A stretch of 56,038 bases of DNA, from positions 1 to 56,038 of the forward strand of contig CAZVGK010000022.1 in the NCBI GenBank assembly GCA_964626665.1. The letters run 5' to 3'. The translations under genes were made by a program, and so were the position numbers. The notes under the pieces are model-generated. The model saw only the letters and a list, made by a program, of their open reading frames with translations, was not told the origin of the DNA and did no database searches. This DNA comes from an uncultured Gemmatimonadota bacterium (GTDB taxonomy: Bacteria > SM23-81 > DAOVCL01). Positions 12,620 to 16,998 of this stretch are shown in pieces (position 1 is the stretch's first letter; each line of letters begins with the position of its first letter).

Positions 12620-12659
12620 AAAAGCTCTTAGGGGTAGCTATGGCAAGTATTACAAGGCG

Positions 12660-12697
12660 AGGTGGCATCCCGATTTATCGGGATGCCACCTTTTTTT
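12660..12697 (+). terminator. Strong palindrome / intrinsic terminator
   Basis: AGGTGGCATCCCGAT-TT-ATCGGGATGCCACCT followed by a T run. Confidence 0.75.
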
Positions 12698-12818: not shown

Positions 12819-12847
12819 TTGACTTTCAGCCAGTTCTTAGTTATTCT
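12819..12847 (+). promoter_or_regulatory. Putative sigma70 promoter for larEBC
   Basis: TTGACT-N17-TATTCT, about 230 nt upstream of the larE start. Confidence 0.5.
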
Positions 12848-13081
12848 GTAATAGTGTGATGGGAAGGTCCTTGGTTCCCGTGGATGGGTAGGGAAGGCGA
12901 AGCAACCATAAGCATTTGCATAGAGGCTGTTACAGTTATGTTACTGAAGTGGTATTAAGGGAATGAGATTTGGTTTATGGGAGAGCAGTCTTTATAATTT
13001 TATGGATTCCCTTATTTCTACATAATGGCGAATTAACCTTTAGTGAGTAAAAATTGATGGTGTTTAGAAGATGATTTATAT

Positions 13082-13906
13082 ATGAAAAAGTTTGGACTTT
13101 CAACGAAATTGAAGTTCCTGAAAAATATATTATCTGAGATGGGGGGCGTGCTCATCGCTTATTCGGGTGGAGTGGATAGTACTTTTTTACTTAAAATTGC
13201 CTCAAGTGTGTTAGGAGACAGGGTGGTTGCTGTTACTGCAACTTCGGAAACATATCCGTCAAGAGAGTTGAAGGGGGCCAAGAAAAATGCGAAAATGCTT
13301 GGCTTGAAACATATTGTTATCAATACGAATGAATTGGATAACGAAAACTTTGTATCTAATACTCCCAAAAGATGTTACTATTGTAAGAAGACGCTGTTTT
13401 CTGAGTTAGTAAAATTAGCGAAGCAATATAAATTAAACTATGTAGTTGACGGCTCAAATTATGATGACACAAGTGATTTCCGTCCGGGTATGAGGGCAGC
13501 CTCAGAATTTGGGGTGCGGAGTCCTTTAAAGGAAGCCAAGTTCAGGAAAACTGAAATCAGAGCTCTATCGAAGGAAATGGATTTGCCTACATGGGATAAA
13601 CCTTCTCATGCTTGTTTATCAACAAGATTCCCATACGGCGACAGAATCACGCGAGAAAAACTTTCAAAAGTTGAACTTGCAGAGGAGTTTTTAATGGGAT
13701 TTGGTATCAAGCAATTGAGGGTCAGGATTCATGGTAATATAGCGAGAATAGAAGTTTTAAGGGAAGATATGCCTATTTTTCTTGACAGGGATATATCAAA
13801 AAAAATCGTGAGGAAATTTGAAGCTCTTGGATATGTATACATTACTTTAGATATTCAAGGCTATCGAATGGGCAGTATGAATAAGCAATTAAAAATTAAG
13901 GAATAA
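13082..13906 (+). CDS. larE: LarE, ATP-dependent sulfur transferase for NPN cofactor synthesis
   Basis: PP-loop SGGVDS, RCYYCK, DFRPG, WDKPSHACLSTRFPYG and RVRIHG motifs. Confidence 0.93.
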   Translation: MKKFGLSTKLKFLKNILSEMGGVLIAYSGGVDSTFLLKIASSVLGDRVVAVTATSETYPSRELKGAKKNAKMLGLKHIVINTNELDNENFVSNTPKRCYYCKKTLFSELVKLAKQYKLNYVVDGSNYDDTSDFRPGMRAASEFGVRSPLKEAKFRKTEIRALSKEMDLPTWDKPSHACLSTRFPYGDRITREKLSKVELAEEFLMGFGIKQLRVRIHGNIARIEVLREDMPIFLDRDISKKIVRKFEALGYVYITLDIQGYRMGSMNKQLKIKE

Positions 13907-13909
13907 AAT

Positions 13910-14668
13910 TTGGAAAGAAAGAAGATAAAGAGACTTTTGGAAGATGTTAAGGCTGGTAAAATTGGGGTTAGCAGTGCAATGGAAGTTTTGAAATCATTCC
14001 CGTATGATGATCTGGGTTTCGCTAAAATAGATACCCATAGAGACTTAAGGAAAGAGTTCCCAGAAGTAATATTCTGTAGAGGAAAAACAATAGAACAAAT
14101 AACAAAAATCGTAGAGAGGCTTTCAACGAGAAATGAATTTGTTATGGCTACTAAAGCTGATAGGGAAATTTATAAAGGTATCAGAAGCATAAGGGAAGAT
14201 GCAGTCTATTATGAAACTGCTGGAATAGTATCAATTGGTCAGAGGGAAAAGAAAAAAACTACGAAAACAATATTAATAGTTAGTGCTGGAACATCTGATA
14301 TGCCAATTGCTGAAGAGGCGGCAGTCACCGCAGAAATCATGGGAAACGTTGTGGAAAGACTTTACGATGTCGGTACTGCTGGAGTCCATAGATTATTCTA
14401 CAATAAAGAGAAGTTGTTTAATAGTAATGTCATTATAGTTATTGCTGGGATGGAAGGGGCTCTGGCAAGCTTAGTTGGAGGATTGGTTGATAAACCAGTA
14501 ATTGCAGTTCCCACTAGTGTAGGCTATGGTGCCAGTTTCGAGGGGTTGGCTGCATTGTTAACAATGTTGAACTCTTGCGCACCGGGCGTAGTAGTGGTGA
14601 ATATAGATAATGGATTCGGCGCTGGATACTTTGCAAGCATTATAAACCAGAGGGAGGTGAATAAATGA
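13910..14668 (+). CDS. larB: LarB, NaAD carboxylase/hydrolase (PurE-like)
   Basis: AGTSD, AGMEGAL, AVPTSVGYG and LNSCAPGVVVVNIDNGFGA motifs; TTG start. Confidence 0.93.
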   Translation: MERKKIKRLLEDVKAGKIGVSSAMEVLKSFPYDDLGFAKIDTHRDLRKEFPEVIFCRGKTIEQITKIVERLSTRNEFVMATKADREIYKGIRSIREDAVYYETAGIVSIGQREKKKTTKTILIVSAGTSDMPIAEEAAVTAEIMGNVVERLYDVGTAGVHRLFYNKEKLFNSNVIIVIAGMEGALASLVGGLVDKPVIAVPTSVGYGASFEGLAALLTMLNSCAPGVVVVNIDNGFGAGYFASIINQREVNK

Positions 14669-16407
14669 ATGTAGCATACTTTGATTGTTTCTCAGGTATA
14701 AGTGGAGATATGATTTTAGGAGCATTTATAGATGCTGGATTCGATCTGGAAGAGCTAAAATCAGAACTGAAGAAGCTGAAAATATCGGGATACAAAATTG
14801 AATCTAAAAGCACAATGAGAAATGCAATTTCCGGGACAAAAGTCAATGTCCAGGTAACCAAGCAAACTGCGGAGAGACACCTGGATGATATCGTTGAGAT
14901 TATCGAGAAAAGTGATCTGAGCGATAACATCAAAGAGAGAGCCAAAGGAATATTCAGAAATTTAGCCGAAGCTGAAGCTAAAATACATCACAAGGATATA
15001 CACGAGATTCACTTTCACGAGGTGGGAGCATTGGACTCTATTGTGGATATAATCGGCTCCCTGATTTGCCTGGAAGGATTGAGTATCCAGACGGTCTATT
15101 CGTCGGAAATCCATGTGGGAAGAGGTTTTCTTGAGTGTCAACATGGAACTCTTCCCATCCCGGCTCCAGCCACAACAGAGTTGTTGAAGGATATACCAAT
15201 CTATTCCAGGGGCATAGAATCAGAACTAACCACCCCAACAGGCGCCGCAATCCTAAAAACTATATCCAAGGGTTTTGGAGACATTCCAAAAATGAAGGTG
15301 AAGAAAATCGGTTACGGCGCTGGAAGTAGAGAATTGGAGATACCAAATTTGTTGAGAGTCTATATTGGTGAGGTGAATGACTGTGAATACGAGGAAGACA
15401 AAGTTATTCTTATTGAAACAAACATCGATGATATGAACCCAGAGTTTTTTGATTATGTTTTTGAAATGCTTTTAAAGAAAGGTTCTCTTGATGTTTTTAT
15501 GACACCAATATTCATGAAGAAAAATAGGCCAGGGATCATGCTCGGTGTTTTAACTCGAGAAGATAAACTTGATGAAATTCTCTCAACGATCTTTACAGAA
15601 ACAACAACATTGGGGGTCCGAATTCATCGTTTAGAAAGAAAGAAACTTGTAAGGGAAATTGTTTCAGTCGAGACAAGATTTGGCAAGATAAGAGTGAAGA
15701 TGAGCAAAATTGGAGGGCAAATCAAAAATACCGTTCCAGAGTATGAAGACTGTAAGGAAATTGCGGTTAAACTGGGGATACCTTTAAAGGATATATATGA
15801 TGAGGTGAGAAGAACTGCTCAAGAAACGTTATTTGATGGATTGGATGAAGATTGTATGGTACCTAAGGCAGCTAAATTAGAATTTAAAGGTTTGACCCCG
15901 ATCATTACCATGAGACAATTGAGTTTCAAGTTGAAGCAAATTGGAGTTATACGAACTCCATATACTGATAGTGCACCATATCAGCCTGTGGAGGAGGACG
16001 AGGGAGATTTCCGTATAGTAATTGAGCCCCAATATACCGATGGACTCTATGAACTTGCCAGATTTCGCTATATCTATGTTATTTACTATATACATCAGGT
16101 AAAGCAAGAGGTATCAATGATTGTATCTCCTCCATGGACTGGTGGCGTAAATGTGGGCGTGTTTGCAAGCAGATCACCTGTTCGCCCGAATTACATTGGG
16201 CTTAGCGTTGTTCGTATAAAACGCATCATAAATAATGAGATTTTAACATCGGGCTTGGACGCGTTCGATGGAACCCCGTTGCTTGATATCAAGCCATATA
16301 TAAAGGACTTGGATGCAAAATCCGATGCCAATTATGGTTGGATCGAAAAAATGGATAACCCTGAACATCTCCTTTTACATATTAAGGGTATTCCCCATGA
16401 TTACTAA
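14665..16407 (+). CDS. larC: LarC nickel insertase fused in frame to a C-terminal TrmO/TsaA-like (UPF0066) domain
   Basis: Residues 1 to ~390: FDCFSGISGDM, HFHEVGALDS, TPTGA, ETNIDD, MKKNRPG, ETTTLGVR, PEYEDC. From Met416: IGVIRTPY, GVFASRSPVRPNYIGLS, DGTPLLDIKPY. No stop codon between the two parts. Confidence 0.88.
   Translation: MNVAYFDCFSGISGDMILGAFIDAGFDLEELKSELKKLKISGYKIESKSTMRNAISGTKVNVQVTKQTAERHLDDIVEIIEKSDLSDNIKERAKGIFRNLAEAEAKIHHKDIHEIHFHEVGALDSIVDIIGSLICLEGLSIQTVYSSEIHVGRGFLECQHGTLPIPAPATTELLKDIPIYSRGIESELTTPTGAAILKTISKGFGDIPKMKVKKIGYGAGSRELEIPNLLRVYIGEVNDCEYEEDKVILIETNIDDMNPEFFDYVFEMLLKKGSLDVFMTPIFMKKNRPGIMLGVLTREDKLDEILSTIFTETTTLGVRIHRLERKKLVREIVSVETRFGKIRVKMSKIGGQIKNTVPEYEDCKEIAVKLGIPLKDIYDEVRRTAQETLFDGLDEDCMVPKAAKLEFKGLTPIITMRQLSFKLKQIGVIRTPYTDSAPYQPVEEDEGDFRIVIEPQYTDGLYELARFRYIYVIYYIHQVKQEVSMIVSPPWTGGVNVGVFASRSPVRPNYIGLSVVRIKRIINNEILTSGLDAFDGTPLLDIKPYIKDLDAKSDANYGWIEKMDNPEHLLLHIKGIPHDY
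15877..15903 (-). repeat. Right imperfect inverted repeat, inside the LarC-TrmO linker
   Basis: The reverse complement GATCGGGGTCAAACCTTTAAATTCTAA matches 12593-12619 (first 11 nt identical). Confidence 0.6.
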
Positions 16408-16455
16408 ATAAGATGCAAATGAATGAAAATTGGCATCTCTACTGATGGAGCCAGC

Positions 16456-16998
16456 CTATCTGCCGAAGAACATACCTCCCCCCAAAAGCAGGGAGAGCAC
16501 AACCATCACCAGAGCGGTGAGGATGATCACCACCCCTGCCTTTCCCCTATCTAAGGAGAAGACCTCTATTATCCCCCGGGCGGCGATGTAGATCCCATAA
16601 AGGGCAGCCAGAGTTCCCACCAGCGGGATCCATCCGAAGACGCCTACGGCATTCGTATAGGCCAAGATGCGAAAGGATCCCTCGTAGCTTCCCTGGCCCG
16701 GGAAAAGCTGGGTGGAGAAGAGATAGAGAACGGCGGCAACCAGGAAGGTCATCAGTGTAGCCCCCACGAATGCGGAGAAGAATCCTCTGATCCCCCCTCC
16801 AAAAATAGCCTTAAGCAGGCCATTTGCTCCTAAACAGACCAACATAAAAAGGGCTGGGGGCAGAAATCCCCCCTCCCTGGGCATCTGACGGAAGAAGAGG
16901 GAAGGGTTGATGAGCACTCCCTTCCAGGTCTCCCAGAGGCTGCTGGGGAAGTTGCTGGGGTCAAATTCATTTACCGCTACCTTATCCATCTCATCCAT
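16456..16998 (-). CDS. YIP1 family membrane protein
   Basis: TWKGVLINPSLFFRQMP start, GSYEGSFRILAY and WIPLVG motifs, five hydrophobic helices. Confidence 0.75.
   Translation of the reverse strand: MDEMDKVAVNEFDPSNFPSSLWETWKGVLINPSLFFRQMPREGGFLPPALFMLVCLGANGLLKAIFGGGIRGFFSAFVGATLMTFLVAAVLYLFSTQLFPGQGSYEGSFRILAYTNAVGVFGWIPLVGTLAALYGIYIAARGIIEVFSLDRGKAGVVIILTALVMVVLSLLLGGGMFFGR

Follow-up and report, generated by a model that had tools for sequence, protein, structure and literature searches.

LarC is the CTP-dependent nickel-inserting cyclometallase of nickel-pincer nucleotide (NPN) biosynthesis, TrmO (also YaeB or TsaA) is a class VIII beta-barrel S-adenosylmethionine (SAM or AdoMet) methyltransferase that forms m6t6A37 in tRNA, and nickel metallochaperones such as HypA/HypB, UreE, SlyD and CooT/CooJ use His-rich motifs. 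Here we describe an open reading frame (ORF) that joins a LarC to a TrmO-like domain, at 14665..16407 of a 56,038-nt stretch from an uncultured Gemmatimonadota bacterium (contig CAZVGK010000022.1 of assembly GCA_964626665.1), the whole of which is called the window below. The fusion is genuine and in-frame, formed from larC and the next gene of a larE-larB-larC-tsaA-like operon, and it is real, recent and fixed in one population. As to function, we surmise that the partner domain is a nickel-handling accessory of LarC, a reading for which our confidence is evenly balanced.

The available text of a 2026 cryo-EM study (PMC13510736) gives 21 His residues for the LarC of L. plantarum, whose LarC1 and LarC2 are linked via a programmed frameshift, and describes M. 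thermoacetica LarC mutants among which H108A, H118A and H160A had almost no activity and H116A ~60% of wild type; in the same portion of text, nickel was not seen at the LarC His cluster. For TrmO, the available sections of PMC4132733 report that Asp194 and Arg196 of the DPRxxY motif in TrmO_C are needed for tRNA methylation by the E. coli enzyme, that AF0241 contacts AdoMet via Gln22, Arg82, Asp111 and Lys122, and that archaeal YaeB short forms without the C-terminal domain may have another target.

A scan of metagenome contigs gave two relatives of the locus, namely L095, from a JGI (Joint Genome Institute) metagenome, and L096, a 6.2-kb contig from another habitat in which larC and its partner are separate genes. 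The parts of the fused ORF, in window positions, are as follows.

14665..16407, + strand: the fused larC-tsaA-like ORF, a single uninterrupted frame of 580 amino acids (aa)
14665..15384, + strand: LarC1 (nickel-site) domain, residues 1-240, from the alignment with PDB 12bi, with His108, His116, His118 and His160 inside
15397..15840, + strand: LarC2 (CTP-binding) domain, residues 245-392 (NCBIfam NF052512, 153.4 bits; PDB 6bwo, 5e-25)
15838..15841, + strand: deletion junction, where the DNA alignment gives L096 146 nt more, including the larC TGA stop and the intergenic hairpin
15841..15909, + strand: linker, residues 393-415, a translated remnant of the old larC-tsaA-like spacer
~15904-15909, + strand: second gap, 7 nt vs. 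L096 in the DNA alignment
15910..16404, + strand: TrmO_N-type (TsaA-like) domain, residues 416-580, from Pfam and NCBIfam; Met416 is the start codon of the separate L096 gene
16357..16404, + strand: C-terminal tail with the clade motif H-x3-H-x5-H (His568, His572, His578), from alignments

Within this frame, Pfam recognizes PF01969 Ni_insertion at residues 4-378 (profile positions 1-375 of 375, E 7.5e-152) and PF01980 TrmO_N at residues 437-550 (E 1.6e-31), and NCBIfam places LarC1 at 71-234 (229.3 bits), LarC2 at 247-364 (153.4 bits) and TsaA at 420-555, all over cut-off. LarC homology ends at about residue 392 (...RRTAQETLFDG), and unfused LarC homologues terminate 0-25 residues past the equivalent position; the 23-aa linker follows, TrmO_N homology begins at Met416 (MRQLSFKLKQIG), and the protein ends 30 residues past TrmO_N with the tail EHLLLHIKGIPHDY. 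No GGAGG-like or Shine-Dalgarno-like site lies in the 25 nt 5' of the Met416 ATG, unlike the larB/larC junction, which carries GAGGGAGGTG. The original prediction, made from the letters of the window, had a full LarC running without a stop into a complete UPF0066 domain, a His-containing tail, a Met416 with no obvious ribosome-binding site and a LarC lacking the long His-rich insert; as a description of the ORF it was correct at every checkable point, with one 580-aa frame and a linker of 23 aa, three His in the tail, the upstream 25 nt bare of such a site, and 8 His in LarC1 vs. 21 in L. plantarum LarC.

The LarC part appears to retain all features of an active nickel-inserting cyclometallase. 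Residues 1-381 align with M. thermoacetica LarC (PDB 12bi) at E 5.8e-109, with no gaps over the first 243 residues, and His108, His116, His118 and His160 align with His of 12bi and are kept in 25, 23, 25 and 24 of 25 LarCs, respectively; the 8 His of LarC1 include no long His-rich insert.

The origin of the fusion can be followed by comparison with L096, whose gene order is that of the window (larE, larB, larC, the TrmO_N-type gene and a convergent Yip1 gene) and whose LarC and partner proteins are 95-98% identical to their window counterparts. In L096, larC is 396 codons long and ends at a stop of its own (...RRTAQETLFDEKRAT), the partner forms an independent gene of 165 codons with the same start as the domain at window Met416, and the two are ~207 nt apart (L096:4036-4242). 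This spacer carries a hairpin with a 7-bp stem (CCGGCTA...TAGCCGG) and a T-run ahead of it, which is deleted in the window. DNA alignment showed that 146 nt are absent from the window directly after ...TTATTTGATG, a segment that holds the TGA stop and the CCGGCTA...TAGCCGG hairpin and ends within short GATG/TGGATG repeats, and that a further 7 nt are absent immediately 5' of the ATG of Met416. Since 146 and 7 nt, neither a multiple of three, add up to a net difference of 153 nt, or 51 codons, larC and the tsaA-like gene came to lie in one frame. Logan contigs of two hydrothermal-vent runs (X23, X24) share 148 additional letters with L096 and also have the 7 nt; for the 7-nt site, the ancestral state is decidable only with an outgroup. 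The ancestor thus had larC and the tsaA-like gene separate, ~207 nt apart as still in L096; the window lineage lost 146 nt comprising the larC stop and the intergenic hairpin between short GATG-type repeats, and LarC now reads through 23 former spacer codons into the partner at Met416. Because a ~97% identical relative keeps two genes, the fusion is a strain-level event.

The divergence between window and L096 differs along the block, as given here by nucleotide identity, synonymous divergence (dS) and the ratio of nonsynonymous to synonymous divergence (dN/dS).

larE: 85.2% identity, dS 0.59, dN/dS 0.14
larB: 89.9% identity, dS 0.34, dN/dS 0.16
LarC: 96.8% identity, dS 0.083, dN/dS 0.24
TrmO_N-type part: 97.4% identity, dS 0.10, dN/dS 0.08 (3 of 165 residues differ)
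Yip1 gene: 89.4% identity, dS 0.45, dN/dS 0.07

Both fused parts are intact and under purifying selection. The comparison of window 13082-16998 with L096:1263-5809 is a mosaic, in which larC and the TrmO_N-type gene have a younger history than their flanks, and this common younger history suggests that the pair was exchanged together, having moved or recombined as a unit within the lar block. As the downstream Yip1 gene is shared, the lar block sits at the same place in both.

The junction itself is reproduced in other assemblies. Logan contigs from two salt-marsh runs not flagged as source (X20, X21) showed 0 differences over 15704-16450 and 15764-15984, and L095 is 100% identical to the window over 12.7 kb, junction included, with the proviso that the X20/X21 contigs and L095 may come from one habitat or campaign; 18 further runs, possibly of the source campaign, contain all sampled words of 15500-16420. 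The assembly error against which the original prediction had warned was therefore not seen, as separately assembled contigs reproduce the junction.

By sequence, the partner domain is a TrmO_N barrel, with PDB sequence matches to 2nv4 (3.4e-21), 7btu (1.1e-18) and 1xqb (4.1e-18). In the 2nv4 alignment, all four AdoMet-contacting residues are identical, namely Q of APYQP, R of ASRSP, D of GLDAFDG and K of LDIKPY, which upholds at the level of sequence the earlier claim that the domain binds SAM. Strict conservation of these pocket residues makes it probable that the domain has kept the ability to bind SAM or a ligand of similar, amino-acid type.

To place the domain among its relatives, we used it as a phmmer query against 1.84 billion cluster representatives, yielding 6239 matches at E<=0.001 and 62 at E<=1e-30. 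Among the best 150 of these 6239, Pfam found PF01969 in 20, CooT in 2, and NicO, HMA and an ABC ATPase in 1 each; one of the 20 PF01969 proteins also has Fur and one a NifX-like domain, and TrmO_C occurred in 5 of the best 150, all weaker matches. PF01969 is also present in 5 of 15 long TrmO_N proteins. The linkage with LarC takes two further topologies. In one, LarC1 is followed by the domain (P0001, P0002, P0029, P0031, P0038), as in a Thermotogae contig (L053) with a 422-residue LarC1-TrmO_N protein and then separate LarC2, LarB and LarE genes. In the other, found in P0003-P0005 and at least 15 others, the domain is inserted within LarC1, and the insertion point is the His108-His118 segment, which the available text of the solved-structure LarC paper treats as the putative nickel site. 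The break comes after an AERxAH motif resembling AEAKIH108 of the window (a comparison by eye, MAFFT having placed that part poorly), and the H-x3-H-x5-H tail of the inserted domain runs into an LHE motif aligned with FHE of the window at His118. One inserted-type protein of 457 aa (L068:5508-6881) has no LarC2 and lies beside an SLAC1/TehA-type channel, a pyridine-nucleotide disulfide oxidoreductase and a radical SAM protein, and the 5.5 kb preceding it contain no lar genes; pincer-cofactor synthesis may not be the only setting in which LarC1-type domains work. On the tree described below, the C-terminal type needs 4 changes, at least 2 of them forced by well-supported branches, and the inserted type 3; the existence of an unfused sister in L096 makes the fusion in the window an event separate from all the others.

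Linkage without fusion was also found. A WOR-3 genome (L025) has a TrmO_N-type gene on the same strand ~2 kb before larE-larB-larC, with a methyltransferase, a NifX-like protein and a MinD/ferredoxin ATPase between the gene and larE, and in three related Thermodesulfobacteriota genomes (L042, L043, L046) LarE lies directly upstream of the TrmO_N-type gene, the LarE of L042 being supported by NCBIfam (195.6 bits vs. cut-off 150). In 40 other genomes searched, no frame spanned both LarC and TrmO_N parts, and a word-based search of a 5.8-billion-sequence collection gave no protein of 319-1015 residues spanning LarC2, linker and domain.

The nearest relatives of the domain have a common tail, H-L-x-L-H-[IVL]-x-G-[IL]-P-H, and in the clade alignment, by its own numbering, H150 and H154 are invariant and H160 is present in at least 90%. 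In a FastTree phylogeny of 212 domains, whose rows were selected by similarity to the query, the tail motif marks 78 of 121 rows of one clade and 0 of the 91 rows outside it; the clade takes in every one of the 27 LarC-fused rows, together with the fusions to NicO, CooT and ABC and the rows with lar or hyp context, and outside fall the TrmO_C rows, the paralogue of the genome itself and the HMA fusion. We use this His-tailed clade as a working unit, not a proven one. Several relatives carry poly-His extensions of the tail, with up to 39 His per 80 residues. HEHKHDHSHEH-type tails were seen in Desulfitobacterium/Desulfosporosinus (L055:7992-8771, L056:1031-1666, L058:8001-8636) and in some metagenomic proteins (P0025, P0032, P0039); the neighbours of poly-His copies are radical SAM, glyoxalase, Ogt-like and Mn catalase genes, not obviously nickel genes. 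Three members (P0018, P0019, P0028) have, by eye, a signal peptide or lipobox-like N-terminus with AdoMet-pocket motifs intact, which is odd for a methyltransferase. Many of the closest relatives (L019:7650-8000, L020:1672-1989, L021, L024, L026-L029, L032, L036) also have an N-terminal helical extension of ~100 residues with the motif (L/M)-x-Y-W-I-N-H-N-x-x-H...A-N-x-H-I-E; it had no Pfam match below E 0.001 in a search run to E 1, its best PDB sequence match (E 0.18) is not credible, and its nearest Atlas clusters, of DUF8180, score 0.77, below counting level.

Copies 65-83% identical to the domain occur in many bacterial phyla as well as in Methanosarcinales and Asgard archaea. At 65-88% identity (L015-L041, L097-L147) they were seen in Eubacteriales, Bacteroidales, Desulfobacteraceae, Atribacterota, WOR-3, Spirochaetota and Actinomycetota, and on Methanosarcinales/ANME-2, Promethearchaeota and Helarchaeota contigs. 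As near copies are scattered over many phyla and archaea, the TrmO_N-type gene must be very mobile, and the pattern points to wide, recent horizontal spread among sediment anaerobes.

In a scan of 242 ORFs within 3 kb at 48 species-representative loci, seven had nickel-maturation genes, namely the five lar loci (L053, L025, L042, L043, L046), a Bacteroidota locus (L048) with hypB-hypC directly upstream and a Bacteroidales locus (L059) with hypE-hypA-hypB directly upstream. Other neighbours were MFS (major facilitator superfamily) transporters and metallo-beta-lactamase-fold proteins at 4 loci each, and DUF1684 and homocysteine S-methyltransferase at 3 each. A class-I (UbiE-like) methyltransferase stands near the TrmO_N-type gene in L015, L023, L025, L029, L036, L038, L041, L042, L043 and L046, directly adjoining it in several, often accompanied by a NifX-like, DUF1684 or DUF59-type protein; these neighbours and the TrmO_N-type gene may form a conserved module.

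Taken together, we infer a nickel role for the partner domain, as suggested by: 1) its repeated joining to LarC1, not LarC2, once exactly at the nickel loop; 2) the His motif of its tail, often extended to poly-His; 3) its other fusion partners, which are nickel proteins. We postulate that the domain would bind Ni(II) via its His tail, probably dimerizing as other TrmO_N proteins do, and would supply or buffer nickel for the His108/116/118/160 site of LarC1, a role that would match, in trans or here in cis, that of the long His-rich insert of other LarCs. A bolder version, possible yet doubtful in our judgment, is that the His-tailed TrmO_N clade would be a new nickel-delivery family on the class VIII methyltransferase barrel, its "SAM" pocket repurposed in such a way that a SAM or amino-acid-type ligand and the three tail His form or gate a Ni(II) site, from which nickel would be handed to LarC1 and, elsewhere, to Hyp- or Coo-type maturation. 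If this were true, thousands of genes annotated as tRNA methyltransferase TrmO would be mis-named.

Several observations weigh against a nickel role: 1) Arg, Asp and Lys of the AdoMet pocket are invariant in 42 aligned clade members and Gln is kept in at least 90%, and such a pocket would fit an enzyme or a ligand-binding protein better than a simple metal carrier, making it the main fact for which a nickel helper does not account; 2) lar or hyp genes lie within 3 kb at only 7 of the 48 loci, three of them close kin, with other neighbours at 41, and ~50 metagenome loci with 69-88% identical copies have no lar gene in the fetched flanks; 3) a class-I SAM methyltransferase of ~190-230 residues is the most frequent neighbour (10 of 48 loci), followed by NifX-like proteins (5 of 48), and both point to a function broader than nickel, or different; 4) the genome already has HypA; 5) the clade node has a Shimodaira-Hasegawa (SH)-like support of only 84, with rows picked by query similarity; 6) the full LarC plus TrmO_N form was found only in the population of the window, so the fusion itself may be neutral.

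The last point leads to the alternative that a highly mobile gene of the TrmO_N type inserted downstream of larC and was later joined to it by the deletion, the domain doing nothing for LarC. Only the deletion separates the fusion from its ~97% identical unfused relative, the architecture was not found elsewhere in the sequences searched, copies 65-88% identical are spread over many phyla, Methanosarcinales and Asgard archaea mostly without lar genes, and two genomes of the same genus have no lar block, all of which would be expected of a neutral accident. However, LarC1 fusions of independent origin show two further topologies, in one of which the domain sits precisely in the nickel-binding loop, and lar adjacency recurs in WOR-3, Thermotogae and Thermodesulfobacteriota; in addition, two non-triplet indels (146 and 7 nt) sum to an in-frame product, dN/dS is 0.08 in the fused domain, and larC and the domain share a history younger than that of the flanks. 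On this balance we consider an accident rather unlikely. The original prediction had offered either a functional link or a recent accident, and both were partly true: a recent deletion is shown, yet domains of the same clade are fused to or near lar genes elsewhere. It had also set against itself the case that neither fusion nor lar/tsaA linkage occurs in any other genome, which does not hold, because there are LarC1 fusions in other phyla and lar neighbours in other genomes.

The domain could instead be an active SAM-dependent methyltransferase of the pathway, whose target might be the pincer cofactor or a precursor of it, yielding a tailored NPN variant, or else a residue of LarC or of an enzyme that uses the cofactor. 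The four AdoMet-binding residues of AF0241 and E. coli TrmO given in the available text of PMC4132733 are conserved, the NCBIfam TsaA score is over cut-off, and several lineages have the domain next to LarC or fused to it; new pincer-cofactor users and variants are also emerging, according to the portion of PMC13524815 at hand. Nevertheless, cofactor tailoring leaves unexplained the three-His tail, the poly-His forms, the CooT and NicO fusions and the positions in hyp operons, clade members with a signal peptide or lipobox (by eye) would be without SAM outside the cell, most close relatives have no lar genes nearby, and the available text of two LarC/NPN papers reports no methylated NPN. An enzyme of this kind is thus unlikely in our estimate, and nickel handling would seem to account better than SAM-dependent cofactor tailoring for the wider evidence (His tail, poly-His, CooT/NicO fusions, hyp operons and exported members). 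The neighbourhoods, spread and exported forms fit general metal handling better than a dedicated Lar enzyme, and leave room for a SAM-linked function.

That the partner is an ordinary TrmO, a tRNA m6t6A37 methyltransferase fused by chance, is very improbable. Its score of 119.5 bits with the NCBIfam equivalog TIGR00104, vs. a cut-off of 93.25, would speak for such an enzyme; however, the second TrmO_N gene of the genome (contig C13, L002:1438-1914; 158 codons, 33% identical to the fused domain and without the tail) passes TIGR00104 too, and because both paralogues pass, the label "equivalog" cannot be right for both. Moreover, Pfam gave no PF18389 TrmO_C match in the fused ORF, and this is the domain whose Asp194 and Arg196 E. 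coli activity needs, by the available text of PMC4132733; the clade also shows metal-type features. Judged by its domain content, then, the partner is not the tRNA enzyme TrmO, given that the C-terminal domain for tRNA binding is missing and that another TrmO_N gene is present in the genome, and we rejected canonical TrmO for want of this defining domain. TIGR00104 is over cut-off for window 15910-16404, for L002:1438-1914 and for the poly-His form L055:7992-8771, with the result that automatic annotation names all of them tRNA methyltransferase; since both paralogues and poly-His forms pass, a sizeable clade is probably annotated with a function not its own.

Finally, an assembly or binning artefact, in which a collapsed or chimeric contig joined two genes, would be in keeping with an assembly in 63 contigs and the atypical GC content of the block, and was rejected as practically negligible given the agreement of independent contigs: those of X20 and X21 reproduce the junction without a difference, every sampled word of 15500-16420 occurs in 18 runs, the identity of L095 extends over 12.7 kb, and window and L096 have the same Yip1 gene downstream.

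The surroundings of the fused ORF in the window comprise the following features.

12659-12692: terminator-like hairpin ending a PAP2 gene, before the promoter-like site
12819..12847, + strand: promoter-like site 5' of larE, from a consensus scan only
13000..16450, no strand: low-GC block with larE-larB-larC-tsaA-like, GC 0.36-0.42 vs. flanks of 0.46-0.59
13082..13906, + strand: larE (ATP-dependent sulfur transferase), first gene of the lar block (NCBIfam TIGR00268, 339.6 bits vs. cut-off 150; Pfam PP-loop)
13910..14668, + strand: larB (NCBIfam NF033503, 291.2 bits vs. cut-off 175; Pfam AIRC), its stop overlapping the larC start (ATGA)

On the opposite strand, 3' of the fused ORF, are genes for a Yip1-domain membrane protein, a UbiA-family protein and a response regulator-PglZ protein, and at 51645-56038 (- strand) the window holds an rRNA operon with 5S, 23S, two spacer tRNAs and, truncated where the window ends, the 3' part of 16S. 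Rfam gave no riboswitch near the lar genes. The source genome (3.17 Mb, 63 contigs, 99.65% complete) has one LarC, which is this ORF, and one LarA-family (Lar_N) gene, on contig C4, whose best NCBIfam model is malate-racemase LarAH6 at 389.6, below the cut-off of 500. This gene is ~16 kb from a [NiFe]-hydrogenase large-subunit gene (C4:150737-151321, L004:859-2118, and C4:133552-134817) and far from the lar block. The genome also encodes HypA and [NiFe]-hydrogenase large subunits, and it has no match to the CbiM/NikM or NicO transporter families. The two same-genus genomes searched had no LarC match and housekeeping-type TrmO_N only.

LarC and TrmO are both well known; the LarC-TrmO_N link is new in the literature searched. 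In titles and abstracts, with subscription journals and supplements outside the scope, we found no published link of LarC, or of nickel-pincer or nickel chaperones, with TrmO, TsaA, UPF0066 or YaeB, in agreement with the first impression that the architecture was undescribed. The words "fused", "fusion" and "methyltransferase" do not occur in the text of the LarC structure paper and the 2026 NphT paper, and fusion of PF02663 (FmdE) to PF01980 was reported in 2010 (PMC2954224, available text). A helper domain tied genetically to LarC would offer a way to study how the enzyme obtains its nickel, with the fused form here and the unfused form in L096 as a natural pair for comparison. The locus also lets the conversion of two adjacent operon genes into one fusion protein be traced nearly to the base, and the value of the fusion is as a pointer to a nickel-associated, probably mis-annotated branch of TrmO_N.

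Set beside known LarC systems (L. plantarum; M. thermoacetica, 12bi; 6bwo), residues 1-392 of the window protein are a full LarC (PF01969; NCBIfam TIGR00299 and NF052512) with the four His kept and LarC2 present, encoded in a larE-larB-larC operon with a LarA-family gene elsewhere in the genome; unlike known LarCs, it has an extra 165-residue C-terminal TrmO_N-type domain, and its LarC1 contains just 8 His, the long His-rich insert being absent. The joining of LarC1 and LarC2 is known to vary, as in the L. plantarum frameshift, and a third domain is not mentioned in the available text of PMC13510736. In comparison with TrmO (E. coli; AF0241, 2nv4; 7btu, 1xqb, 3okx), the window domain is TrmO_N with the AdoMet-site Gln, Arg, Asp and Lys kept, and like archaeal YaeB it is a short form without the C-terminal domain; it differs in the absence of TrmO_C and DPRxxY, in its clade-specific H-x3-H-x5-H tail, in its association with nickel-handling proteins and in having a separate paralogue in its own genome. 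Although the fold of the clade, a methyltransferase-type beta-barrel with an intact ligand pocket, has no kinship with theirs, and its metal binding is a prediction, the clade resembles the nickel metallochaperones in its conserved His motif, often poly-His, in the fusion of some members to CooT or their place directly behind hypA/hypB, and in its proposed role, which would be to feed a nickel-insertion site.

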